Source: Naegleria gruberi
Taxonomy: Eukaryota
Assembly (NCBI GenBank): GCA_000004985.1
Contig: GG738926.1
DNA: 64,000 nt
Direction: 5' to 3' (one strand)
Part shown: positions 6 through 55,913 of the stretch, piece by piece
Layout: every line of letters begins with the position of its first letter
Position numbering within the stretch: position 1 is the first letter of the stretch
Notes under the pieces: model-generated
What the model was told of the DNA's origin: nothing
Seen by the model: only the letters and a program-made list of their open reading frames with translations
The model's database searches: none
Position numbers and translations under genes: made by a program

Positions 6-3000
6 ATGAATAAGAAATTAAAAAATAGAATTGATTTAAAACATTTATTATTAATTAAATTAATTAAATTAATTAATAGATTAGGTGGTGAAATTCAAAT
101 TATGAAAGAATCAAATGAAAAGAAAAAAGATATGTTAAAACATATTGCTGTTTTATTACCTGCTGTTGCTACTTTAATTAAATCTATTAATAATAATAAT
201 AATAATAATTTAAATTTAAATAATAATAATAATTTAAATAATAATTTAAATTTATTTAGAATGATGTGGTTTTATATAATTATATTTAAATTTAATAATC
301 CAAATGAATTTAATGATGAAACATTTGAATCATGTCAAATTATTGGAATGAATGGTCCAATTTTATTAAATTCTAATATTCATACGTTTATGGAAATTAA
401 TAAGGAAATTGAAGTAATTTTAGATTCTAAAAATATATTACAAGAAGAAAAGACATATTTTACACAACAATTAGAATCTTATATTAATCATGGTAAAGAT
501 ATACTTGTTAATCCTTCCATTTTAAGACAATTAACAATTGAAGAAGTAATATTTTTAATTTCAATGTATAATTTAGAATTATTTAGAGCACGTTCAGGTC
601 AACCATTAAAACATTTATTAAATTATTTAGAACATTATAATATATTTACAAATATAGTAAATACAACATTACAATCATTATTAAGAAGAATATTTGAACA
701 ATGGTTATTAATTTATATTAAATCTCAACCTCAACAATCTCAATTACAATCACAATTACAATATCAACAATCACAATATCAACAATCAACANNNNNNNNN
801 NNNNNNNNNNNNNNNNNNNNNNNNNNNNNNNNNNNNNNNNNATTAGAAATACAATCTGCTTTATATCAAGGTAATGATAATGGTAAAACTACTTTTATCA
901 TTTCTGTTAAAATTAAAAAGAATTTTAATAATATGAATAATTTGAATAAGACTAGTCTATCTAGTATTGCTAATAATAATATGAATAATATGAATAATAT
1001 GAATATGAATAATAATAATAATGAAATGATTGAAGAAGAAGAATATGAAGAATATTATTTACCTGAAAATTATAGTGATAGATGTAAATTATTTGAATCA
1101 TTTAATAGATTTACATTATCATGGATTAGTAAATCAATGACAGTTGCACCTAATGTAACACAAACAGCACTTCAACATTATTTAATTAAATTCCAACAAT
1201 CAGATGTTTCATCATTAAGACATTTTGGTTATACATTTGCTGTTTATTTATCAACACCTATTGAACATTTACAAGCAGTTGGAAGTAATATTTTATTAAA
1301 AAGTGATAAGAGAGGTTTTTCAATTCTATCACAAGATCAAGTTTCATTAACTCAATCCATTTCTGTAATGTCTTTTAGTTCTGGTCAAGCTAATTCTTTA
1401 AAATTAATGTTAGGTAAACGTTCTGCTGAATCAATGATTATTAATCAATTATCTAATTTAATGAAATTATATAATAATAATAATATGAATATGAATAATA
1501 CTAGTAATAATATGAATATGAATAATACTAGTAATAATGTTAAATTTTATGAACAATTATCAGATACAATGAAATTAGCAACAGCATTTGTATTAAGTGA
1601 AAATACATTAATAATATCATTATTACAATGGATAGTATGGTTACCTGTTTATATATTTACAAAAGAATCAATGGATATTGCTATTTATTGTTGGAATTGG
1701 ATTGCATCTGTTAAATCTAATGATTTTAATATTCCATTATTATCTGAAATTTCAAATGCATGGCAATTTACTATTCAAAAAGGATATGGTTTATTTAGTG
1801 GTCATCATGAAAAAGATGAAGCTGTTGAATTAGCTGTTCAATCTAATAATCAATCTAATACTACTACTAATACTAGTACTAATAATAATACTACTAATAA
1901 TAATACTAGTAATAATCAAACCAATCAATTCAATCAAACCAATCAAACATTTAATAATGTATCAGAATTTAAAGTATATTTAAATTCTAATTCTAATAAT
2001 ATAGAAAATAAGAAAGATACCTATCCACATCGTATTTGGATCAATTATTTATCAGAGAGATATCAAAGTGGTGGATTATTAAATGAAGCTATTGTTGATA
2101 TTTATTTAAAAATGTTATTAAGATCAGTTGAAAATATTAATAGATTAAGTAAATCACATTCATCATTAGGTACAAGATTTAGATTATCAAATTTATCATT
2201 ACAAGTATCTAGAAGTGTAATTGATTTACAATTTTATGATTATATTCCAAATGCAACTATATTACAACATCGTACATTTGCTGCTTTATTAAATTGGTTT
2301 ACATTACATCCAACTTGGTATAATCCAGGTTCTAATCATATTGTACAAGATGATTTGAAAGTATTAGCAGATGTTAAAAAGAGAATTAAAAGAGAACAAT
2401 CTGAATTGAATCGTTATCAATCTATTAATATTAATGATTCTCAAATTGGTTTAACAAATAATACTTCATCTAATGCAATTTTAGATTCAGATAATATTAG
2501 TATTAGTGGTATGAGTGTTAGAACTAGTTCACGTTCTGTTGGTTTTTCTATTAAAGCCATTTCATCAAGTCAATTATTATCTTCTACTAATACTGATAAT
2601 CAAGATTTTGATACAAGTATTTCACTTCATCCTCATACTACTGGTACTACTAATACTACTGGAGCTAGTACTACTACGTGGTGGTGGTGGTGGTGGTGGT
2701 GGCAGTGCTACTAATGGTACTACTACTAATAATTCTAATAATACTTCTAATAATAATAATAGAACAAGTAGATCTGATACACGTACAATTGTCTATTCAA
2801 CATCAGGAGTAGATGCAATATTAGATGTATTATTATTATTAATATCACATGAATATGATAGAATGATAATTTGGAATGAACCACAAAAATTAATATTAAC
2901 AGAAGATTATACAAAAATATCTTTAAATAAGTGGAAGATATTTATATCAACAGCATGGAGTTTTTCACCTAAATTAGCAATTAAAATGCATGTTAGATTT

Positions 3001-5056: not shown

Positions 5057-7380
5057 NNNNNNNNNNNNNNNNNNNNNNNNNNNNNNNNNNNNNNNNNNNN
5101 NNNNNNNNNNNNNNNNNNNNNNNNNNNNNNNNNNNNNNNNNNNNNNNNNNNNNNNNNNNNNNNNNNNNNNNNNNNNNNNNNNNNNNNNNNNNNNNNNNNN
5201 NNNNNNNNNNNNNNNNNNNNNNNNNNNNNNNNNNNNNNNNNNNNNNNNNNNNNNNNNNNNNNNNNNNNNNNNNNNNNNNNNNNNNNNNNNNNNNNNNNNN
5301 NNNNNNNNNNNNNNNNNNNNNNNNNNNNNNNNNNNNNNNNNNNNNNNNNNNNNNNNNNNNNNNNNNNNNNNNNNNNNNNNNNNNNNNNNNNNNNNNNNNN
5401 NNNNNNNNNNNNNNNNNNNNNNNNNNNNNNNNNNNNNNNNNNNNNNNNNNNNNNNNNNNNNNNNNNNNNNNNNNNNNNNNNNNNNNNNNNNNNNNNNNNN
5501 NNNNNNNNNNNNNNNNNNNNNNNNNNNNNNNNNNNNNNNNNNNNNNNNNNNNNNNNNNNNNNNNNNNNNNNNNNNNNNNNNNNNNNNNNNNNNNNNNNNN
5601 NNNNNNNNNNNNNNNNNNNNNNNNNNNNNNNNNNNNNNNNNNNNNNNNNNNNNNNNNNNNNNNNNNNNNNNNNNNNNNNNNNNNNNNNNNNNNNNNNNNN
5701 NNNNNNNNNNNNNNNNNNNNNNNNNNNNNNNNNNNNNNNNNNNNNNNNNNNNNNNNNNNNNNNNNNNNNNNNNNNNNNNNNNNNNNNNNNNNNNNNNNNN
5801 NNNNNNNNNNNNNNNNNNNNNNNNNNNNNNNNNNNNNNNNNNNNNNNNNNNNNNNNNNNNNNNNNNNNNNNNNNNNNNNNNNNNNNNNNNNNNNNNNNNN
5901 NNNNNNNNNNNNNNNNNNNNNNNNNNNNNNNNNNNNNNNNNNNNNNNNNNNNNNNNNNNNNNNNNNNNNNNNNNNNNNNNNNNNNNNNNNNNNNNNNNNN
6001 NNNNNNNNNNNNNNNNNNNNNNNNNNNNNNNNNNNNNNNNNNNNNNNNNNNNNNNNNNNNNNNNNNNNNNNNNNNNNNNNNNNNNNNNNNNNNNNNNNNN
6101 NNNNNNNNNNNNNNNNNNNNNNNNNNNNNNNNNNNNNNNNNNNNNNNNNNNNNNNNNNNNNNNNNNNNNNNNNNNNNNNNNNNNNNNNNNNNNNNNNNNN
6201 NNNNNNNNNNNNNNNNNNNNNNNNNNNNNNNNNNNNNNNNNNNNNNNNNNNNNNNNNNNNNNNNNNNNNNNNNNNNNNNNNNNNNNNNNNNNNNNNNNNN
6301 NNNNNNNNNNNNNNNNNNNNNNNNNNNNNNNNNNNNNNNNNNNNNNNNNNNNNNNNNNNNNNNNNNNNNNNNNNNNNNNNNNNNNNNNNNNNNNNNNNNN
6401 NNNNNNNNNNNNNNNNNNNNNNNNNNNNNNNNNNNNNNNNNNNNNNNNNNNNNNNNNNNNNNNNNNNNNNNNNNNNNNNNNNNNNNNNNNNNNNNNNNNN
6501 NNNNNNNNNNNNNNNNNNNNNNNNNNNNNNNNNNNNNNNNNNNNNNNNNNNNNNNNNNNNNNNNNNNNNNNNNNNNNNNNNNNNNNNNNNNNNNNNNNNN
6601 NNNNNNNNNNNNNNNNNNNNNNNNNNNNNNNNNNNNNNNNNNNNNNNNNNNNNNNNNNNNNNNNNNNNNNNNNNNNNNNNNNNNNNNNNNNNNNNNNNNN
6701 NNNNNNNNNNNNNNNNNNNNNNNNNNNNNNNNNNNNNNNNNNNNNNNNNNNNNNNNNNNNNNNNNNNNNNNNNNNNNNNNNNNNNNNNNNNNNNNNNNNN
6801 NNNNNNNNNNNNNNNNNNNNNNNNNNNNNNNNNNNNNNNNNNNNNNNNNNNNNNNNNNNNNNNNNNNNNNNNNNNNNNNNNNNNNNNNNNNNNNNNNNNN
6901 NNNNNNNNNNNNNNNNNNNNNNNNNNNNNNNNNNNNNNNNNNNNNNNNNNNNNNNNNNNNNNNNNNNNNNNNNNNNNNNNNNNNNNNNNNNNNNNNNNNN
7001 NNNNNNNNNNNNNNNNNNNNNNNNNNNNNNNNNNNNNNNNNNNNNNNNNNNNNNNNNNNNNNNNNNNNNNNNNNNNNNNNNNNNNNNNNNNNNNNNNNNN
7101 NNNNNNNNNNNNNNNNNNNNNNNNNNNNNNNNNNNNNNNNNNNNNNNNNNNNNNNNNNNNNNNNNNNNNNNNNNNNNNNNNNNNNNNNNNNNNNNNNNNN
7201 NNNNNNNNNNNNNNNNNNNNNNNNNNNNNNNNNNNNNNNNNNNNNNNNNNNNNNNNNNNNNNNNNNNNNNNNNNNNNNNNNNNNNNNNNNNNNNNNNNNN
7301 NNNNNNNNNNNNNNNNNNNNNNNNNNNNNNNNNNNNNNNNNNNNNNNNNNNNNNNNNNNNNNNNNNNNNNNNNNNNNNNN
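5057..7380. other. Large assembly gap (about 2.3 kb of N)
   Basis: Run of N characters. The X-filled ORFs across it are artefacts. Confidence 0.99.
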
Positions 7381-8900
7381 ACAGAACAATATGTGTCAAC
7401 ATGATTTATTAATAGACATCCGTGGAACAACCATTTTATTATGTTTTATTCATCTTCAACTTTTCATGTTGTTTTGCGACGTATCTGATGATGAAATTAT
7501 TATGTTATCACCAACAAGAGGTGTCGTCAAAAACACCTACGTTGAAGTTGTAAATCATACGGACGTTCCGAAGTTTGGTGGAAAGAGACCTAATATGATG
7601 GAGGTTCAATTTAATGTTGGTAAATTTGATGGAACATGTAGTAAATATCCCATGATTTCTACGCCATACTGATAACTTGTAATACCAGACTGTAATCGAA
7701 TTGTTTCCTGTTAACGTTACCTAAGAGCTGTAACACTACGAGCATCAGATGTAATGTATGCATGTTGCTGTCTCGTTATTATAGTCATTGGTTGTAGTCA
7801 GAAAACAATAACGTAAGTCTAAATATCAAATATAACTTACGATTTTCCGAATCATGGTACCTGTGCGATGTAAACACATCATTAGTAAAATATGTAGCTG
7901 TGTTAGAAAATGGAGCTTGTTACTGTGTATTTTATTGAAACCTGAGTTACTCTTTAGAGTTTTCTGACTTGTTCAGACATCTATATCTTTCTATGATTCT
8001 AAATACTGAGTATTAGCTCCGTGGTACACAATTGAATAATGGAAGTATTATGATGCAAAGAGCTTCCTATTCTTAGCGTAAGTACATAACAGCATGGTAG
8101 CAGTGAAAATTATAATCATAAGATCCTACTGTAAATATGAAGTACGTATTACTGTACTTCTCCTAAATGATTCAAGTTTCATAATAAATAGATGGTGTCC
8201 CTTGTAATTCCAATTCAATTCTTTACAAGTTGAAATACCTCTCTTTTTTGAAGACAGTTAGTTCCACGACAGTGATGTATACCATTACGAGTTCTCTCCT
8301 TAATGTTGGTAGAAATGACACCTTCTGCAGCAGGTTATTCAATTTCGTATAACAAGAACTCTTTATATATTCAATAAATCTGTTATGATTAGGATCTACA
8401 CTATTGCCGTGTTGGTTAAAACGCCAATCGTAAGACATTAAGGTTCCTATAGAATATGACTACGTATTTTTCATAAACTTCGCAGTTTCCTAGAGAGTAA
8501 ATACTATTACCTATCACTTTCAATCTTTCAATATTAAATTAGTATTTTAATTTTGCGTCGCAATAGTTACATTGTGAATCAAAGAGAGATCAACTATTTA
8601 TCCTATTGCTCCAGTAAATATGAAGAGTTACAAATACTGAACTTGAAAAAGTACTTGAACTTAATATCCTTATTAGATTCATTTTATCATTTATTTGGAA
8701 AGGTTGTTCATGATAAAATTTATATTGTACAAAGGTTCACCGCCCTTTTGCTACACAATATAACACATTAGATAGACTAGACTGCAAATATTGTGTGTGT
8801 GCAATAGTGTTGTGATGTTGGTGGTGATGAACCTTAATAGAGATACAATATATCTCAACAACAAACTATTACTTGAACAACAATAAAAAAAACAAACAAA

Positions 8901-9353
8901 ATGATTAAGGCTACAACTATTATTGCTAGTTTACTTATTATTGTATTGTGTACACAATATACAATGGCACAAACATGTAAGATTGGTACCTTGTTTAATC
9001 AATCACCTAAACAATGTACAGATTGTACAACATGTACAGGTGCAAATCCAACATGTGCTACTAGAAGTGATGATCTTGAAGTTTCTTCTAACTTGATTTT
9101 ATTAACAGGTGATTGTAGGGTTGTTGGTATTGAACAAGCATGTTCTCGATATGATCCAAAGAATCAAAAATATGTTAATAATGATGGTTCATATAGAATT
9201 TGTAAGGCTTGGTGTGAAAAGAGAAAATCAACATGTAATGATCCAACTGATTGTTCAAATTATCCTACTACTGATTGTTGGAATAATTCTAATACTATGG
9301 TATTAAGTATGGGTACTTTTATTTTAATTCTCATTTCTATTCTTTTATTTTAA
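8901..9353 (+). CDS. Small secreted Cys-rich protein with N-terminal signal peptide and C-terminal hydrophobic GPI-anchor-like tail (ponticulin-like class). Paralog of 54356..54844.
   Basis: MIKATTIIASLLIIVLCTQYTMAQTCK... signal peptide. About 14 Cys. Motifs C-T-T-C-T-G and S-N-Y-P-T-T-D-C-W-N are shared with the 54.4 kb paralog. Terminal LSMGTFILILISILLF hydrophobic tail. Confidence 0.55.
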   Translation: MIKATTIIASLLIIVLCTQYTMAQTCKIGTLFNQSPKQCTDCTTCTGANPTCATRSDDLEVSSNLILLTGDCRVVGIEQACSRYDPKNQKYVNNDGSYRICKAWCEKRKSTCNDPTDCSNYPTTDCWNNSNTMVLSMGTFILILISILLF

Positions 9354-9431
9354 ATAAATAATTGTATTAATATTGTATATTTAATATTACAATTTAATAG
9401 TATTACAAATAATCCAATCTCCAATAATTGA

Positions 9432-9944
9432 ATCCAATCACTTTTATCAGTTGAAGTAATTGATATTTATTCTAAAAATATTAAATGATTACCATATGAA
9501 AATCATTTAAGTGAATGTAATTTACAAAATAATAATTTAATTAAAAAGAGGAACAGTTCAATAGATAATATTTCATATAATCAACAATTAAATTCACCTA
9601 ATCAATTTATTAAGAATAATAATTTTAATAATTTATTAAATATTAATAATAATAATAACTTTAATTTAGAAATTAATAATGAAAATTCACCTAATGAAAG
9701 TATTGATTGTCAATCAATGTTAAAAAGTGTGAATTCAAATTATTCAAATTTATCTTCATTATCAAATAATTTAATGAATCCAATTTCAATTTCTAATTTT
9801 AATTCTAATATTATTATAGAAAATATAATTAATAATTTAAACACTTTAGTTTATTAAACATATAATACAACATTCAATTAATTGAAAAAATCATCTAGGA
9901 AAATTATTAGATCTTCAATTTCATTTAGAGAATTATTAAATTAA
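9432..9944 (+). pseudogene. Decayed member of the AT-hook/'SISIKDLLN' family: one reading frame with three in-frame stops and no AT-hook
   Basis: One frame reads ...LLSVEVIDIYSKNIK*LPYENHLSECN...(Asn-rich)...TLVY*TYNTTFN*LKKSSRKIIRSSISFRELLN*. It retains the family's N-terminal (SxVE, IDIY), LPYEN and C-terminal IIRxSISxxxLLN-stop motifs. Stops at 9486, 9855 and 9879. Confidence 0.5.
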
Positions 9945-10396
9945 TTTGTAAATAGTAATTTCTATTTTGAAATTTTAATAATTCATCATGGACATTGATT
10001 TATTGTAATAATGATTGTAAATAAATAAGGTATCAATGTCCATGAATTTTATAGAAATTACAATTATTTATAAATGGAAAGTAATATTTTCAATGTTATA
10101 GATAATGACATTTCAAAGACATTTGGGAGTATCAACTTCCAAACATTATTAATGTGGTGATCATTTTCAACATTTTTATTCGAATCATGAAATAGACAAG
10201 ATGAATACCTACCATTTATGGCAAGTAAGATACTTTGTATTGCCGGCAATTGATTGAAAATGGCCCAATAGTACCATTTAATAACAATACATTCCCATTT
10301 GTGTTATCATGTTTATAAAACTTTTCATTTAAATAGGCGTTGGAGAGAAAACTCACTATATTAAAAAAACAACTCAACAAGCCTTTGAAATAGCCT

Positions 10397-11014
10397 TTGA
10401 TGATAACTTACCACAAATTCTCGTTAGTTGAATTTTCACCACCTCTTCAACAATCTAATAATGCTAATATTCCATCAATTGATATTTATCATGCAACCTC
10501 AACTAACATGAAATATTCCACCACCACCACCAAAACAATCACAACACAACAATTACCTAAAAGAAGAGGTAGACCATGTACTAGACGAATTGATCCATCT
10601 ATACCACTCATGACAATTACCAGAACTGAAATTATTTCAAATTCAATTGAACAACAACAATCAAATAATCTTGAAAAATTACTTCCCTATGAAAATCATA
10701 CAACCATTCAACCTCTGAAATCCAAAACCTTAACTAATTCCAATATTAATAAGAGAAAGAGATCTTCAAGTAATTCAACAATTACTAATAATACTTCATA
10801 TAATAACATTGATTGTATTCATCAACCATTGGAAAAGAAAAGTAAATTAATTGAAGATTATATTGAATCCAATGATGCAACATCACCACAACTTGCATTG
10901 CTATCAAAGCCAAACCATCAACAAAGGAGTAGTAGTGATATAAAGGGAGTAATTTCACCTCCAAATAGAAAAATTATTAGGACATCCATTTCAATCAAAG
11001 ACTTATTAAATTGA
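10397..11014 (+). CDS. Family member A: small low-complexity putative DNA-binding protein with AT-hook (KRRGRPCTRR) and conserved C-terminal IIRTSISIKDLLN
   Basis: MMITYHKFSLVEFSPP... N-terminus. RGRP AT-hook. MTITRTEI and LLPYENH motifs. The tail is identical in pattern to the paralogs at 12.6, 13.8 and 30.3 kb. Confidence 0.6.
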   Translation: MMITYHKFSLVEFSPPLQQSNNANIPSIDIYHATSTNMKYSTTTTKTITTQQLPKRRGRPCTRRIDPSIPLMTITRTEIISNSIEQQQSNNLEKLLPYENHTTIQPLKSKTLTNSNINKRKRSSSNSTITNNTSYNNIDCIHQPLEKKSKLIEDYIESNDATSPQLALLSKPNHQQRSSSDIKGVISPPNRKIIRTSISIKDLLN

Positions 11015-12595
11015 TAATATAGATGTGAGTCAATTATTTTCATTCTCATACAAATGAGGCCCGGGGACAAGTAAAAAATATATCGTTGGGGACAGCCCAT
11101 AATTAAAAATAACCAGGGTACAATTATCTGGTTGATAGAGTTGGTGAATTGTTGATTCAATTCTTAACTAAAACTACCAATGTTGCACCAATGAACAGAG
11201 TACATAGGATAGAGTAGTATGATACTTTTTGTTTTTTTGAATTTCCTTTAATGTTGGTGAGGAATGATAATTGTTAGTAAAAGAAAATTAGCTCTTTTAG
11301 CGTTGTTTTTACTTGAAAATTAGAAGAAATATTGATAATTAATAAAGAAAAAGTTGAAACTCAGAAGAGAATCATAACCCGTAAGCTCTTGTGCTCGTAT
11401 TGGCACTTTACATTTCGGAAGATAGTTTTAGGATTAACAAACAACCCTAAAATTACAAAGAAATCAATACGAAACTGAAATCCTGTTGTAAATCAGGAAA
11501 CCAACACAATCAGTGGTGGTATTATATCAATTTAATAACATTTTGATCGCACCCTTGTTGTATGAAGTAGTTTTTGAGAATACAAAATGATACTCAAAAA
11601 AGGCGAGCTGATTATCTCATCAACCAAAGAGAATCAACATCTAACAAATCAGAATCCTAACCCCATACAATTTTACTATAATTTTTGTGGTCTTTCTTGT
11701 AAAGTAATATTTGACTTTTCTATACCCAAATATTTTCCATCTGTCCGCAACAACATATTCTTTATTAGTCCCCAGGCCTCAATGGATATTTTGATTTGCA
11801 GGTGATTTCGGTAAATTTGTAATTGAAGCCTTAAAGACCAAGAGAAGAATCATGTATTAATAATAGGTGAATTTTAAGTCCGTTAAATTTTAAGACGTTA
11901 AACATGTAGAACATCAATAAGGGAATTATTAAATTAATAATTTTAATTATTACCATTTATAAATAAGAAATATGCCAGATGAAAATTTTAAGGATTTGGC
12001 AATTATTGAATAAAGACTTGATGTTATTTGAAAGGATTTCAAAGTTGGCTCATTCTTCAGCTAATTATCAAAAGATTGTTGTTTGATTTCTTCTTTAAAA
12101 CACAAAAAAGTTGTTTTTCCAATCATTTGTGAAGCCAATCTCCAGACGTGGCTAATAATTTATTCAAAACGAGGCCAATGAACATATTTGAATACTTTTA
12201 TACAAAGTGATGTAAGATAATCCGAGTGATAGGTATCATATCAATTAATCATTTTCGACACATGCCTAAATTGAAACTGATTACATTGATGTTTTAAAAT
12301 GGAACAATACAATCAATAGGTTCAAATGTCTATTTATCTCACATTAATGTGATTATACTTTTAGATTTGTTCTTCATGATATGTAGTTGAACAATGTCAT
12401 AAATGCCATTTAAAGGCCTTTAAAAATGTGATGTAAATGATCTCGGTGATGGAGATGAGAATCAACTTGTCAATAATAGTACCTTGTTCTATATTAATAC
12501 GTCATATTGTCTCGATTGGTCTTTACATCCCTCCCACAATTCAATGTTCTAAAGGTTTTATCAAGGTCAACAATCTAATTAAAAAAAGAAACAAA

Positions 12596-13018
12596 ATGTT
12601 CTACAACAAAATTTCAATGGTTGAATTTGCAAAGCCTTCAAATAATTCCAACTCTAAAATAACAAAGAAACAACACAATAATGTCCAAGTAAAAGTAACA
12701 CGTATTGAAACCAATGATATCAATCCACAAATATGTAAATTACAACCCTATGAAAGTCAATTCTACATTCAAAAACCAATTAAAAGAAATAAGAAACCAG
12801 ACGAAACTAGGAAACCTTCACAAATGAATAATACCACTATCATTACATCACCACCTCCACCACAATCAACACTACCAACAATATCATCAACATTATGTGA
12901 GTTAAATCATGTTGATGGTAGTGATTATCAAATGACTGTTAATAATAATCAAATAATGACTCAAGCAAAGAGACCAATTATAAGGACATCAATTTCAATA
13001 AACGAACTATTAAATTAA
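12596..13018 (+). CDS. Family member B (ORF 12437..13018; probable start at Met 12596, MFYNKISMVEFAKP). Lacks a clean RGRP but keeps the VTRIETN, LQPYES and IIRTSISINELLN motifs.
   Basis: Motif-by-motif correspondence with members A, C and D. AAAAATG start context at 12591-12598. Confidence 0.55.
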   Translation: MFYNKISMVEFAKPSNNSNSKITKKQHNNVQVKVTRIETNDINPQICKLQPYESQFYIQKPIKRNKKPDETRKPSQMNNTTIITSPPPPQSTLPTISSTLCELNHVDGSDYQMTVNNNQIMTQAKRPIIRTSISINELLN

Positions 13019-13779
13019 ATATTTTCATTAATTAGGTGAGATGTAAACTTGTTAAAATTGAGCTTTTTCAAAATAGTTCTCAATGATGAAGTCTATTTAA
13101 ACCAATTATTATTCTATTTGTTGATAAAGTGAGCTATTACAATATTGCATGGTAAATTTGTATATTTAAAGAAATTATATCAATTAAAATGGTGTTTTTT
13201 ATGGATCTATAATAGAAACATAATTTTCCAATTCCAACATGTCACTTTGTATTTAGCGATTTGATTGTCTAAATTAATCATACCTTTCAAAACAGGACAC
13301 TGTACCATTACAATACCTCAATTGTATCATACCACCTGTCATAATTATTATATATTATTTAAATGATTTTCATCCTTCACAACAGCCATATATCTCCTCT
13401 TCCATTAAGAATTTTGATAAACATGCCAATCAAATAATAAACCAAGAAAATGACAAGAGTTGAAATTCAAAATTGTTTTAAATTACTTCCTTTTGAAACA
13501 ATATTCATTGCTAAAGATTCAGCTTCATCAGAACATCAATCTGAAGAGATGACATCAAGTTGAAAGACAACCATTAAAAATCCAAAAATGAGGCTAGAGA
13601 TTTGGCCTGATCATTAATCAAGAATTAATATTTGAACTTTTTGCATCTAATAATGGATTAAGGTTTATTATGGAGATTAAAAATTCTACTTTAGTATTAT
13701 ACAGTTTTTAATAACTAGTGAGTTATATATCTCACTAAAATCACGATTACTTGAGAAATAAAAACACAATAACCACCAA

Positions 13780-14457
13780 ATGTATTATAGTAAATTATCA
13801 ATAGTTCAATTTAAAGAAGTCAAGTCTTCAAACAAGTCATCACTGCCAACCTCCATTGTTACCAAGAGAAGACGTGGAAGACCAGCAAAGAATGATCCAA
13901 AACCAATATTACCAATAGGTTATTTACAAATGATTACCTCTACAGAATCACTAGCTAGTTCTAATAGTAGTGTTGATAAAGTGGTACTACTTGATACTCC
14001 TAATCATTGTCGACAAGAGGATCTTGATTTCAAAGGCTTGTCGCAGAGTGGTAATAGTATGACCTATTTTCATAACAAGGCTTGTTGTAGCAAGGAGGAG
14101 AGTAGCAATAATAATATTAGCTTTCTAACAACACTTAATTCGAGGCTACATCCACAACCTATTTTCAATACAACATGTAATAATAATAATTGTCATCATT
14201 CACCATCATCCACTAATAATAATAATGTAAATAATTTCATCATGATGAAGAGCAATGATGATAATATTGATATTGATAATAATACAAGAAGATGTTCAAT
14301 GTTTGTAAATTATCAATGTGATGTAGATGATGAAAATAGCAACTTTTCACAAAGTAGAAGTATTCACAGTAGTGGTAACAGCAAAGTTATTTGTATTAAT
14401 ATGAGAAATAGGCGTCCATGCAGGACTTCAATATCAATAAAAGACTTGTTGAATTAA
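13780..14457 (+). CDS. Family member C: AT-hook (KRRRGRPAKNDPKP) protein ending ...RRPCRTSISIKDLLN
   Basis: MYYSKLSIVQFKEV N-terminus, RGRPAKN AT-hook, MITSTES, Asn/Ser-rich middle, conserved C-terminal tail. Lies 165 bp upstream of tRNA-Asn. Confidence 0.6.
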   Translation: MYYSKLSIVQFKEVKSSNKSSLPTSIVTKRRRGRPAKNDPKPILPIGYLQMITSTESLASSNSSVDKVVLLDTPNHCRQEDLDFKGLSQSGNSMTYFHNKACCSKEESSNNNISFLTTLNSRLHPQPIFNTTCNNNNCHHSPSSTNNNNVNNFIMMKSNDDNIDIDNNTRRCSMFVNYQCDVDDENSNFSQSRSIHSSGNSKVICINMRNRRPCRTSISIKDLLN

Positions 14458-14621
14458 TTTTTTTATTAATTATTTAAATTGTTTTTGTTGCAACGGCAAT
14501 TTGTTTTAAAATCCCAATTCGAATTGATGGACGAATTTTAAAATATAAAATTACTCGATTCAACAAAATGTTCCAATTACGGTATTACTTTCGTTTTGTT
14601 ACAAATCAATTCTGACAGAAA

Positions 14622-14694
14622 TCCCCCTTAGCTCAGTCGGTAGAGCGTCAGACTGTTAATCTGCAGGTCGGTGGTTCGAGCCCACCAGGGGGAG
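14622..14694 (+). tRNA. tRNA-Asn (anticodon GTT)
   Basis: Cloverleaf read by hand. Acceptor TCCCCCT/AGGGGGA. D-arm GCTC-AGTCGGTA-GAGC. Anticodon loop CTGTTAA (GTT at 34-36). T-arm GGTGG-TTCGAGC-CCACC. Discriminator G. Confidence 0.85.
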
Positions 14695-14704
14695 ATCTAG
14701 AATT

Positions 14705-17700
14705 TTATTTAACAATCTTTAGGAATCTTTTGCATTGTCTTGCCATTTCCTCCTTAAATTCAAGCAATTCCTCACCTCCTCCTTCACAATTCTTCACAAC
14801 TGCCAAATAAAATCTCTTAATTCCCACATGATTATTAATAACAAATAAACTTAGTGAGTCAACTTGTTCCTCTGTTAAAAAACCTTCCTTTTCTAATTTA
14901 AATAAAATTGCCTGAATTTCAATCCATATATTCTCCTCACTATTTTCAAATGTTGATAAAGATGATCTGGATTGTTGTTGATTTTTCTGATCATTTTCCT
15001 CATCTGATAATTTGTTAACTTCTGCTGCTGATGTTGAAATATTTTGTTGTGAATATCCATCTGATAATAATATTTCATCTTCTGATCCATTTACAATTTC
15101 AAATACTTCATGTTCATTCTTTAATTCTTCTAAACTATTATTGCTACTATTGCTAGTATTGCTATTATTCTGATTCATCATAGCAATAACATCATTTTCA
15201 TCATTATTATTAATATTACTATTATTGGATGATTCTACAACTTGAGAATTATTCACAATTTGTACATTTTGATCATTATTTACATTACTACTATTATTTA
15301 CATTATTATTATCAATATTATTATCATGATTATTATTCATTGCATTAATTTTAATAGTTTCTAATTTATCATTCAATATATTTTCAACTCTTTCTTTTAA
15401 ATTATTTAACTTGTTAACAATTTGAGATGCACTTGGTCTCTTTTCAGGTTCAATTTCCACACAATCAAATAAAATTTGTAAATATTCATCTTTTCCAATT
15501 AATTTTTGAACATTTGTTACTTTTTCATTTGGTTTTAAATAATCTGAAATTTTCTTCTTATTAGTTGGAATTTTAAAATCAATTTTTAATTGACCTGAAT
15601 ATAACATGAATGCGACAATACATCCAAATGACCAAATATCAACTTTTTCACTATACGAATCTTCATTATAAATTTCAGGAGCTAAATATAACATTGTACC
15701 ACATGCTGTTCTTGCAAGTGAACTTTGAACATTTTTAGCTAATCCAAAATCACTTAATTTCATAATTGGTTTCATATCATTACTATAATTAGTATTATTA
15801 TTATTAGTATTATTTGAATTTTCAAATGTTACAAAAATATTTGATGGTTTTAAATCTCGATGTATAATATTTCTCTCATGTATATATTCCAATGCTAATG
15901 CTATTTGAATTAACCATTCAATTATTTCCAATTCATTCCAATTTCCAATTTTATTCCAATAATTAACTTTCCTAACATAGAACATGCTTAAATCACCTGA
16001 TTCACAATATGGCATTATAATATTCAATACAAGTGATACCATTTCATTATTATTATCACCACCACTATTAGTATTATTATCATGTTGTTTTTCCTGATTA
16101 ATCATCATCATTCGTTTTTCAATAAAAAATGATAAAGTAGGTAAAATGTTAACATGTTTCAATTGTTGTAGAATTAAAATTTCATTAAATACACTATCAG
16201 ATGCAACTGATTTGTTTCTACCAACATTATCATTAAATATTATATCCATCCTTTTAAGTGCATAATATTTACTTGTAGAAATATTTCCATTATTATTATT
16301 ATTATTAGAATGAATAGAATTATTATTTAATAAGGAAGAAGTTACAGATGCATTTTCATCTCTCACCAGAAATACGCATGCTTGTCCACCTCTTCCTAAT
16401 AATCTTTCAATTACATAATTTCCAACTCTTGTTTCATTTAAAAAGGAAACTTTACGCAAATCACTAATTGAATTTTCATTTAAATTAGTTTCTAATAACC
16501 ACATATCATTAGCTCTAGCAACTAATTTATCTTTATCAACAATTCCACCAAATATTAATGCTTTACCACTATTAGAAATTGGTTGAATGATAAATCCAAT
16601 ACGCGCAGGTAGTGAATTTCTTTTATCATTCATTATTTCATTATTATTATCACTCATATTACCATTTATGGTAGTATTGAAGGTATTATTAAATTTTTTC
16701 CATTGTAAAGTTTCCAAATCCAATACAAAAGTATTATTTAAATAAAGTTTTTTATAAACACCTCCTACTAGTATTAGAAATTTACCCAAAACAACACATT
16801 TATGATCACTTCTCCTTTCAGGATAATCCTCCGATGGATCTCTATCAGGTAATAAATTCTTCCATCTATAGGAATCAATATCAAATAACCATAAATCATT
16901 GGTTTGAATTCCCTTTTCTAAAACTCCACCAAATAATAGAATTTTATCTTTAACTAATCCACACCAATGATTATATCTAGGAAGTGGTATATTATTATTA
17001 TTAGAAATATTACCATTATTAGAAGTATTATTAGAAGTATTATTAATATTTTGATATTCAATTTTTTTCCATTCAAATATAAAATTCTTATAATCTAAAA
17101 TATTTAATAACCACATATCATTTCTAAATGAACCATCATATCCACCATATAATAATATTGAATTATTACTAATAGGTGTTAGAGAATGATAATATCTTGC
17201 TGTTGGTATTTTAATTCCTAAATTCATTGTAAAACCATCTTTAATCATGAAATTATGTGAATCTGTAAATGTTGGAATCCAAGTTGAGTATTGTGAATTT
17301 TTAAATAGTGAATAATATTCATTATCTTCTTGTTCAATAGTAGATGATGATGATTGTGATGATTGTGAATGAGATGAATGAGATGAATTAGATGGTTTGT
17401 AATAACCTTTTAATTTACCTTCATGCCAAGTCATAGTTTCCAAATTTAGAAACCAAACATCGTTTAATCGAATTTTTTTATCTGCAATTCCACCAAATAT
17501 TAAAATAAATTTACTTTCTGGAATTGTACACATTCCATGACGTTCTCTTGGAATTGGAAATAAATATTTTAGGCAATGTGTTGGTGATTTTACTATATTT
17601 GGAATATTTTTCTTTAATTGGTTTAATTCTTCAAATATTAAATTTGATATTTTCTTTAAAAATTCAACCATTTTAGTTTGATAATTTTTAAATATTATTT

Positions 17701-18505
17701 CCAAATTTAATTTTTTAGATTGATTTACATTTTCCATATTTGGTAATTTTCCAATTTTCTTTTTTAGAAATAATTTTAAAGAAACTTCCAAACTTTCATT
17801 AGAAAGTGAATCTTGTCTCAAAATTTGATTCATTAAATTATTTAAATAAGTATGTAAATAGGTTAATTCATCTTTTCTATTATTAGATTTTATAAAATTG
17901 GCAACATTTGTAAATTCAACAATTGCACCTGGATCTATAAAATCAAATTTTCTAATCATGTATGTTTCTAATTTTACAATAAATATTACAATATATTACA
18001 ATAAATATTATAATATATTACAATATTGTAAAATGTATTATTAAAATAACTTACTAGGAGAAAATAACCAAACATTATTAATTCTCTTAAATCCAATACT
18101 AATACCTCCCATAAATGCAATAATACTTTCATTATCATCGATGTTATTAGATGATGATATCAGACAATCTAATACACATGAAGCATGTCCTGATAATGGA
18201 GGTGGTATATCTGTTTTACTCCAATCAGTAATATCATCACTATTATTATTATTATTAACATTATTAGTAGTAGTACTTTTATTGTTGAATGATGATGATG
18301 ATGAAGAGGATGAATTTCTATTGGATGATTTTTTTGATTGTTTATTCCGATGATCATCAAATAATTTATTATTATTATTTAATGATGATGATGGTGAGGA
18401 TGATGATGAATTATTTTGATGAGTTGAAGAAGTGAATGTTTTTAAATCATTGAGAGGAATGGATTGGAAGGAAATGGAAAGTGTGGAAAGTGTTTTATTT
18501 TCCAT
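14705..18505 (-). CDS. Kelch-repeat Ser/Thr protein kinase: N-terminal kelch beta-propeller, C-terminal kinase domain, long Asn/Ser-rich tail. Two ORFs (18505..18041 and 17959..14705) joined by a short AT-rich intron around 17960-18040.
   Basis: Repeated kelch signatures (LFGGxx...NDLWLFDxxxxxW, FGG motifs) in the N-terminal half. Kinase motifs YVIERLLGRGGQACVFL (Gly loop), HRDLKPSNIF, DFGLAK, APE, DIWSFGCIV. GTAAGT donor at the end of the upstream ORF. Confidence 0.75.
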
Positions 18506-30275: not shown

Positions 30276-31040
30276 TCAATTGAGTAATTCTTTTATTGAG
30301 ATTGAGGTACGAATTATTCTCCTTGTTGTTGGACTATTGGTTGAAAGAGTGTTGCTATGCATTACAAGAGTGGATGTTGTTGGTATTGATAATGTTTCAA
30401 TAAAATCTTGTGTAGTATTAGATACACAATTTGATGAAGTGGATGAGATTGGTGAATGACTTGATTGTCTCTTATTTACATATTTTGGGGTGGAATATTT
30501 TGAATGATGAGAAGGTGAAATGTTCTCAGCATTGAACAATGAATTAAGTGAGCTAGAGGAAGAACATGATAATGATGGTGAATTACAATGGGAAGGAGCA
30601 ACAATATTTGAATTGTTTAAAAGTACAGGAACAGCTGGAATAATATGAGTTGTGGAGCTTACTTTGGATGATAATGTAGCAGATACTACAGATGGTAAAT
30701 AGGAACAAGATAACAAGCTATTATTAGATGTAGCTTTCTTGTTCTTCTGCTTGGTAATTCCAGATGAGAGACGAATCTCACTCTCATAAGGATAACATTG
30801 AGTTTTTGCTTGTGAATAGGAAGAGTGGGAGGAAGCATTGAACATTTCAGTCTTGGTTATCATCATTTTCACAGACGAGCTGTTTGGATTCTTGGCTGGT
30901 CGTCCTCTCTTTCGTGGCATTTCAGGATTGGAAGATAAGGAAGATGATAAAGGATTGTTGTATTGTCCAACACAAGTATTGTGCTGCTTTGAAGGGGTAG
31001 CAAATTCAACGACGGAAAACTTGGTATAGCAACCAGGCAT
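30276..31040 (-). CDS. Family member D (dispersed, inverted copy): AT-hook (PRKRGRPAKNPNSS) protein ending ...TRRIIRTSISIKELLN
   Basis: MPGCYTKFSVVEFATP N-terminus, RGRPAKN, MITKTEM, CYPYESE, Ser-rich middle, conserved C-terminal tail. Same motif order as members A-C. Confidence 0.6.
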   Translation of the reverse strand: MPGCYTKFSVVEFATPSKQHNTCVGQYNNPLSSSLSSNPEMPRKRGRPAKNPNSSSVKMMITKTEMFNASSHSSYSQAKTQCYPYESEIRLSSGITKQKNKKATSNNSLLSCSYLPSVVSATLSSKVSSTTHIIPAVPVLLNNSNIVAPSHCNSPSLSCSSSSSLNSLFNAENISPSHHSKYSTPKYVNKRQSSHSPISSTSSNCVSNTTQDFIETLSIPTTSTLVMHSNTLSTNSPTTRRIIRTSISIKELLN

Positions 31041-55839: not shown

Positions 55840-55913
55840 GCCGTCATAGCTCAGTTGGATAGAGCACAGGACTTCTAATCCTGGGGTCGTGGGTTCGAGC
55901 CCCATTGTCGGTA
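55840..55913 (+). tRNA. tRNA-Arg (anticodon TCT); one T-T mismatch in the acceptor stem
   Basis: Hand-folded. Acceptor GCCGTCA/TGTCGGT. D-arm GCTC-AGTTGGATA-GAGC. Anticodon stem CAGGA/TCCTG with loop CTTCTAA. T-arm GTGGG-TTCGAGC-CCCAT. Confidence 0.75.

Follow-up and report, generated by a model that had tools for sequence, protein, structure and literature searches.

Does the short stretch of DNA between the gene for EFC36697 and the first intact member of a small gene family in Naegleria gruberi hold a further member of that family, and if so, is that member dead? Within the window (the whole stretch of 64,000 nucleotides of contig GG738926.1 that we analysed), positions 9432..9944 of the + strand read in one frame as IQSLLSVEVIDIYSKNIK*LPYENHLSE...NTLVY*TYNTTFN*LKKSSRKIIRSSISFRELLN*, in which asterisks are stops and the terminal TAA lies at 9942. 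A sequence-only reading of this DNA had reported this single frame with stops at 9486, 9855 and 9879, and had taken it for a disabled member of the local family that stands first in the + strand cluster and lacks the AT-hook. Translation and codons agree with the reported frame, save that its spelling 'ISQSLL' has one S too many, and the homology blocks, lesions and position that we describe below bear out the assignment. We consider it very probable that 9432..9944 is a non-functional duplicated (unprocessed) pseudogene of an undescribed N. gruberi family. Tandem families under birth and death leave duplicated pseudogenes of this sort, and as a product of gene duplication the copy is nothing unusual; the family deserves more attention than its dead member.

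The analysis delimits an unnamed family with a clear motif architecture, for which searches of Pfam and the PDB found no family and no relative. From the N-terminus its members carry YxKFSxVEF, usually one AT-hook (RGRP), ITxTE, PYE and a C-terminal RxIIRTSISIKELLN that runs straight into the stop codon. Written as patterns, the N-terminus is M-x(0-15)-Y-x-[KT]-[FIL]-S-x-[VI]-[EQ]-F, the mid-protein block [LQYH]-P-Y-[EI] and the C-terminus R-x-[IVP]-[IVC]-R-[TS]-S-I-S-[IL]-[KRN]-[DE]-[LI]-L-N, directly followed by the stop; the terminal peptides are YHKFSLVEF at the N-terminus and RRIIRTSISIKELLN at the C-terminus. A profile search of 1.84 billion representatives returned 11 proteins at E <= 0.001, nine of which belong to the family and share its motif order, namely the four copies A to D in the window (copy A entering as its annotated 168-aa model), EFC36017, EFC37126 and three proteins from environmental contigs; the other two, of 2846 and 875 aa, were each aligned in many short stretches. 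The family extends to at least seven N. gruberi proteins, two of which are probably alleles (EFC41102 is near-identical to EFC36017), and to environmental relatives (P0009, P0011 and P0012). The AT-hook is present in nine of the ten intact members, the exception being EFC36699, which is copy B. Measured against the Pfam AT_hook model (PF02178; gathering threshold 17.4 bits), copies D and C score 14.4 and 10.3 bits, both below the threshold, and copies A and B and the protein P0006 give no match. AlphaFold2 predicts disorder for the family protein (mean pLDDT 51), with only the two termini reaching ~66-76. A search of the literature on Naegleria and AT-hooks found nothing on the family. It is an undescribed, lineage-restricted family of small intrinsically disordered proteins, and, to judge from the structure model, these proteins seem to carry short linear motifs together with one AT-hook. 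The intact members resemble HMGA-type AT-hook proteins in being small and predicted to be disordered and in having the R-G-R-P core, but differ from them in that they have a single sub-threshold hook and terminal motifs that are absent from HMGA, while the pseudogene has no hook.

Copies A to D each consist of one unbroken, intronless ORF, and their coordinates, with those of the other features of the locus, are collected in Table 1. The candidate pseudogene begins 78 nt past the stop codon of EFC36697, with which it shares a reading frame, and ends 456 nt before the ATG of copy A. EFC36697 itself is Cys-rich with a hydrophobic N-terminus and C-terminus and, by eye, resembles proteins that are secreted or carry a GPI anchor; Pfam gave no match for it. 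We also note that the run of N between 5057 and 7380 gives spurious ORFs of ~800 aa in all six frames.

Table 1. Features of the window that bear on the candidate pseudogene and its array
Feature	Position	Strand	Remarks
Assembly gap (N run)	792..841		
Assembly gap (N run)	5057..7380		
Upstream gene EFC36697	8901..9353	+	exact protein match; 150 aa
In-frame TGA closing the frame upstream	9429..9431	+	
Body of the probable pseudogene	9432..9944	+	171 codons including terminal TAA; 3 internal stops
ATTGATATTTAT (I-D-I-Y)	9459..9470	+	identical (12/12 nt) to copy A 10478..10489, a copy A-specific segment
Stop 1, TGA	9486..9488	+	aligned to TTA (Leu) of K-L-[LQ]-P-Y-E in copies A and B
LPYENH block	9489..9506	+	14/15 nt shared with copy A 10685..10699 over the P-Y-E-N-H codons (9492..9506)
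Asn-rich low-complexity tandem repeat	9599..9680	+	27-nt unit, 2.9 copies
AGT ATT GAT TGT (S-I-D-C)	9699..9710	+	in frame with copy A AAC ATT GAT TGT (N-I-D-C), ~10805..10816
Stop 2, TAA	9855..9857	+	
Stop 3, TAA	9879..9881	+	
C-terminal family motif RKIIRSSISFRELLN	9897..9944	+	followed by a stop at the family position
Nested inverted repeat, 107-nt hairpin	9955..10061	+	directly 3' of the pseudogene stop
Copy A, intact	10400..11014	+	204 aa; annotated only as 168-aa EFC36698
Second relic, C-terminal remnant CRTSIRELLN*	11905..11937	+	body ~11218..11937, between A and B
Copy B (EFC36699), intact	12596..13018	+	140 aa; without AT-hook
Copy C (EFC36700), intact	13780..14457	+	225 aa
tRNA-Asn(GTT)	14622..14694	+	between copy C and a kinase gene at 14705..17959
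Copy D (EFC36737), intact	30276..31040	-	254 aa; dispersed, 16 kb away, opposite strand
tRNA-Arg(TCT)	55840..55913	+	

The link to the family is clearest at the C-terminus. A PSSM made from the last 16 residues and the stop of intact members only gives 36.2 bits at 9894..9944 (intact members themselves reach 53-57 bits), and at no other non-member site in the six frames of the 64-kb window does it exceed 6 bits. An HMM of the C-terminus finds the copy at E ~5e-4 to 9e-4 among 6100 translated pieces, and a nucleotide profile made from the 3' ends of copies A to D matches 9892..9946 in nhmmer at E = 4e-4. Two substitutions in the motif, T>S and K>R, are also present in the intact proteins P0010 and P0011; a third, the Ile>Phe change that turns the ISI core into ISFRELL, is seen in no intact member. 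The LPYENH block scores 16.9 bits, the best of all non-member matches, against a background maximum of 12.7 bits. The earlier claims that both of these motifs are kept, and that they reflect homology and not composition, are thus sustained by block PSSM, HMM and nhmmer scores above background. Copy A shares more with the candidate than these motifs. The segment ATTGATATTTAT occurs at two sites only in the window, one in the candidate and one in copy A (0.23 expected), CCNTATGAAAATCAT is confined to the same pair, and these two blocks together with the 48-nt C-terminal block are unique to the candidate and copy A and are collinear. The DNA-level alignment to copy A that had been proposed as a check gives z = 4.7 when made globally, a value reached by none of 200 codon shuffles, with z = 2.1-2.8 against the other copies; judged by sequence, copy A is the nearest paralogue. 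We also considered 9531..9944 as a separate unit of the copy B type, the segment 9531..9555 resembling the leader of copy B, and rejected it: a PYE block is missing where such a unit should have one, the global alignment to B reaches no more than the z range just given for the other copies, and brief AT-rich matches that occur twice are nothing unusual.

Other parts of the family architecture were not recovered. The peptide 'SLLSVEV' (9438..9458) lies outside the top 30 matches of the N-terminal profile, with noise extending to 8.6 bits, and the N-terminal PSSM gives nothing above 6 bits on the pseudogene; two further candidate remnants, 'IVYLILQF' (9375..9398) and 'YYNLIVLQI' (9385..9411), are not above background either. 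Of the compressed N-terminal motif SxVE..IDIY that had been proposed, SxVE is therefore at chance (<4 bits), and IDIY stands only as the nucleotide identity with copy A. Neither the AT-hook [KR]-[KR]-R-G-R-P, searched for with a family-derived matrix in any frame of 9354..9944, nor the ITxTE block [MVF]-[IV]-[TK]-x-[TIS]-E, searched for in every frame of the pseudogene, gave a match. The distance from IDIY to LPYENH is 30 nt here and 204 nt in copy A, and the corresponding in-frame gap of ~174 nt (58 codons) spans both the AT-hook and the ITxTE block of copy A. The lost AT-hook had been offered as a sign of decay; it is indeed absent in all frames, but its loss is no proof of decay, because intact EFC36699 is also without one, and hook-less members can thus persist as ORFs.

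Stop 1 stands opposite a conserved Leu TTA (candidate ATT AAA TGA TTA CCA TAT; copy A GAA AAA TTA CTT CCC TAT; copy B TGT AAA TTA CAA CCC TAT); one T>G change in this codon accounts for it. The + strand contains no ATG in 9354..9484, and the pseudogene therefore has no available start codon; within its frame there is none upstream of 9717, and the ATG at 9717 (MLKSVNS...) opens an ORF of 46 codons, which stop 2 closes ahead of the C-terminal motif. The ATG at 9485 with the following 'ATTACC' was tried as a start like that of copy A (ATG ATA ACT) and was set aside as chance, since it opens an ORF of four codons and overlaps the far stronger LPYENH. Compared with the intact family, then, the copy has the LPYE block and the C-terminal RxIIR[TS]SIS.[KR][DE]LLN-stop, and it lacks an ATG, a supported N-terminal motif, the AT-hook and ITxTE, with three stops and the Ile>Phe change besides. 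We infer that no family-type protein would be made from 9432..9944.

The sequence-only reading had also called the copy decayed, which is right in so far as the copy is disabled but overstates its condition. The frame has three internal stops where 17.7 +/- 3.9 would be expected from composition, and it includes an open run of 122 codons, a length reached in none of 5000 shuffles, although this mononucleotide-shuffle null is a generous one, as AAT-rich repeats alone keep two of three frames open. The other five frames contain 10 to 40 stops, and the neighbouring + frame 17, against 4 in the pseudogene frame. GC content differs by codon position (15.8%, 23.4% and 7.6%; p = 3e-4, or 4e-5 without the tandem repeat), and the length differences from copy A between shared blocks (-42, -174, +84 and +39) are all multiples of three; the 27-nt repeat supplies the larger part of the +84, which falls between LPYENH and the IDC block. 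At the C-terminus the pseudogene and copy A are identical at 38/48 nt, and copies A and B at 39/48. Overall GC is 15.6%, compared with 26-35% in the surrounding intergenic DNA, which fits recently coding Asn/Ile/Lys-rich sequence with slippage and not long neutral decay. The preserved frame, the periodicity and a C-terminus as close to A as A is to B in DNA together argue that the copy went on coding over most of its existence. We take it for an ancient, divergent paralogue whose disablement came late.

How firmly this holds depends on four other readings of the same locus. It is extremely unlikely that the resemblance to the family arose by chance in AT-rich, Asn-rich low complexity with no homology behind it, even though the interior has only ~59-60% DNA identity to all copies, which is the AT-rich background, and aligns with many off-diagonal HSPs. 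The N-terminal motif is at noise, as said, and the full-length family HMM run against whole six-frame translations leaves the pseudogene at noise too (E = 1.1); low-complexity composition swamps that model, which is why block-wise profiles are needed. Chance would have to account for a C-terminal block of 36 bits in a window with no comparable site, for a stop codon at the exact family position, for in-frame blocks shared with copy A only and in the same order, and for a strand and position that agree with the array; the C-terminal PSSM, nhmmer and the global alignment already effectively refute it. An intact gene, in which faults of sequencing or assembly created the stops and perhaps removed the start, or a null allele found in the reference only, would explain the strong frame preservation, the codon periodicity and a C-terminal motif as conserved as between intact paralogues. 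Both N runs lie in the vicinity, and an identical copy C protein is listed both as EFC36700 and, on a second contig, as EFC35928, which indicates that part of the cluster is represented in the assembly a second time, by a redundant or haplotype scaffold. Such a gene would nevertheless require at least four independent base errors (in the codons at 9429, 9487, 9855 and 9879) and a lost ATG within 520 nt, with the closest assembly gap 2 kb off, and the 58-codon in-frame gap is beyond any base-calling error. Nor did any source yield a similar protein: a word-index search with the pseudo-translation against 5.8 billion protein clusters returned no match even at E <= 10. Even if the stops are disregarded, the copy lacks a start codon and has lost two conserved motifs; sequencing error cannot rescue the gene, and we regard this reading as very improbable.

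Frame preservation and periodicity would equally be expected of a working gene of altered structure, one that is spliced, that starts at the internal ATG 9717 or whose stops are read through, and that yields a shortened protein without a hook, as in the intact copy B. Enumeration of GT-AG pairs found two frame-preserving intervals, 9456..9548 and 9719..9898, that jointly remove all three stops. This sole two-intron solution, however, deletes LPYENH, gains no ATG and leaves a first exon (9432..9455) that abuts the TGA at 9429; no frame-preserving intron removes stop 1 and keeps LPYENH, and no single one takes out all three stops and spares both motifs. Copies A to D in the window have no introns, the ORF from ATG 9717 halts short of the C-terminal motif, and read-through would have to act on codons with which the paralogues terminate (TGA in A and D, TAA in B and C, so that both are real terminators in the copy A-D family). 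There is neither a gene model nor a predicted protein at the locus, and we rate a gene of this kind as highly unlikely. Somewhat less remote, though still unlikely, is that the coding sequence is dead and its DNA has been reused, as the 3' UTR or terminator of EFC36697 or as the upstream regulatory region of copy A, a reading that is compatible with a pseudogene and does not exclude one. It draws on the short distances to both neighbours and on the strong hairpin right behind the stop, which has perfect 14-nt arms (9986..9999 and 10032..10045; -29.8 kcal/mol, z = -3.9), was found once in the 64-kb window and may be a terminator, a foldback element or a palindrome. Against it, no conserved non-coding element was detected, and an Rfam scan of 8000..15000 yielded nothing but one tRNA.

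The pseudogene reading, which we prefer, would entail the following history. A tandem duplication inside the cluster candidate-A-(relic)-B-C would have given rise to the copy, nearest to A, which would then have diverged for a long time while coding, as the multiple-of-three indels, the periodicity and the kept C-terminal motif suggest. Later it would have been disabled; the lesions seen are the T>G change in the conserved KLLPYE Leu codon, two more TAA stops, the absence of a start codon behind the in-frame TGA at 9429 and the in-frame gap over the AT-hook and ITxTE, and the 78 nt to the upstream stop leave scant room for a promoter. The order of the disabling events, and a disablement that is recent relative to the divergence from copy A, are inferred. 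Since intronless copies cannot tell duplication from retroposition, position and orientation alone point to a tandem duplication: the copy lies beside copy A, in the same orientation and at the ~1 kb spacing of the array. No flank homology was found beyond the stop codon. The locus is like other duplicated pseudogenes in lying next to intact paralogues of the same orientation and in having homology blocks, nonsense substitutions and a lost start, but unlike the usual cases in that intron content is uninformative on its origin, and its frame has been kept far better than is typical of old pseudogenes. The frame is unusually well preserved for a dead gene, and a strain- or haplotype-specific null allele, or a very recent inactivation, would look the same as a fixed loss.

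A second relic lies in the same array, which runs in the order candidate, A, relic, B, a questionable position and C at ~1 kb spacing. Its C-terminal remnant has a 2-codon deletion, with YDTFCFFEF and KLLCSYWH upstream in the same frame, and it is the second-best non-member match of the 3'-end nhmmer profile (E = 0.039). In the best frame of this relic there are 15 stops, and codon periodicity is absent, which argues that it is much older than the pseudogene at 9432..9944 and that family members do die in this array. The proposal that the family undergoes birth and death thus gains from a second, more eroded case; this is a small tandem family that gains and loses members. A possible third relic between B and C (13444..13510, + strand; KKMTRVEIQNCFKLLPFETI, compare MTITRTEI...KLLPYENHTTI of copy A) scores at background.

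What the intact proteins might do is suggested by their termini. The EH1 motif is FxIxxIL and the Tup1-binding motif of MATalpha2 is IxIxxLL; Copley 2016 (PMC4943189) reports for N. gruberi a Tup-like as well as a Groucho-like protein. The C-terminal I-S-I-K-[ED]-L-L of the family fits IxIxxLL exactly and resembles EH1, as a pattern match of seven residues only, and we noted the IxIxxLL fit in copies A to D and in P0006, P0007 and P0009 to P0012. The N-terminal F-S-x-V-E-F resembles FxIxx-hydrophobic, likewise as a pattern match only, and in the ISFRELL of the pseudogene the central Ile of IxIxxLL is replaced by Phe. The terminal motifs may therefore be Tup/Groucho-interaction motifs, an idea that bears on whether EH1-type repression predates animals and fungi (PMC4943189). 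A bolder version, which we consider distinctly unlikely, is that the locus is no fixed dead gene but a very recently disabled or still polymorphic hook-less member of an undescribed heterolobosean family of disordered AT-hook adaptors that would recruit Tup-/Groucho-like co-repressors via FSxVEF and ISIKELL. If that were true, the array, with its three intact copies and at least two relics within 5 kb, would record the rapid turnover of a lineage-specific repressor toolkit, and co-repressor recruitment of the EH1 type would extend to Discoba.

Lastly, the locus bears on the annotation of the N. gruberi genome. The accessions EFC36697, EFC36698, EFC36699 and EFC36700 run consecutively and skip 9432..9944, which indicates that no gene model was ever made there, and the copy adds one more unannotated pseudogene to this genome. 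The 168-aa model EFC36698 begins at an internal Met of copy A, whose ORF extends to the ATG at 10400, and translation of the extension (10400..10507, + strand) gives MITYHKFSLVEF, the N-terminus conserved in the family. The public EFC36698 model thus appears to be truncated at the N-terminus, and copy A is at present annotated without this conserved part.
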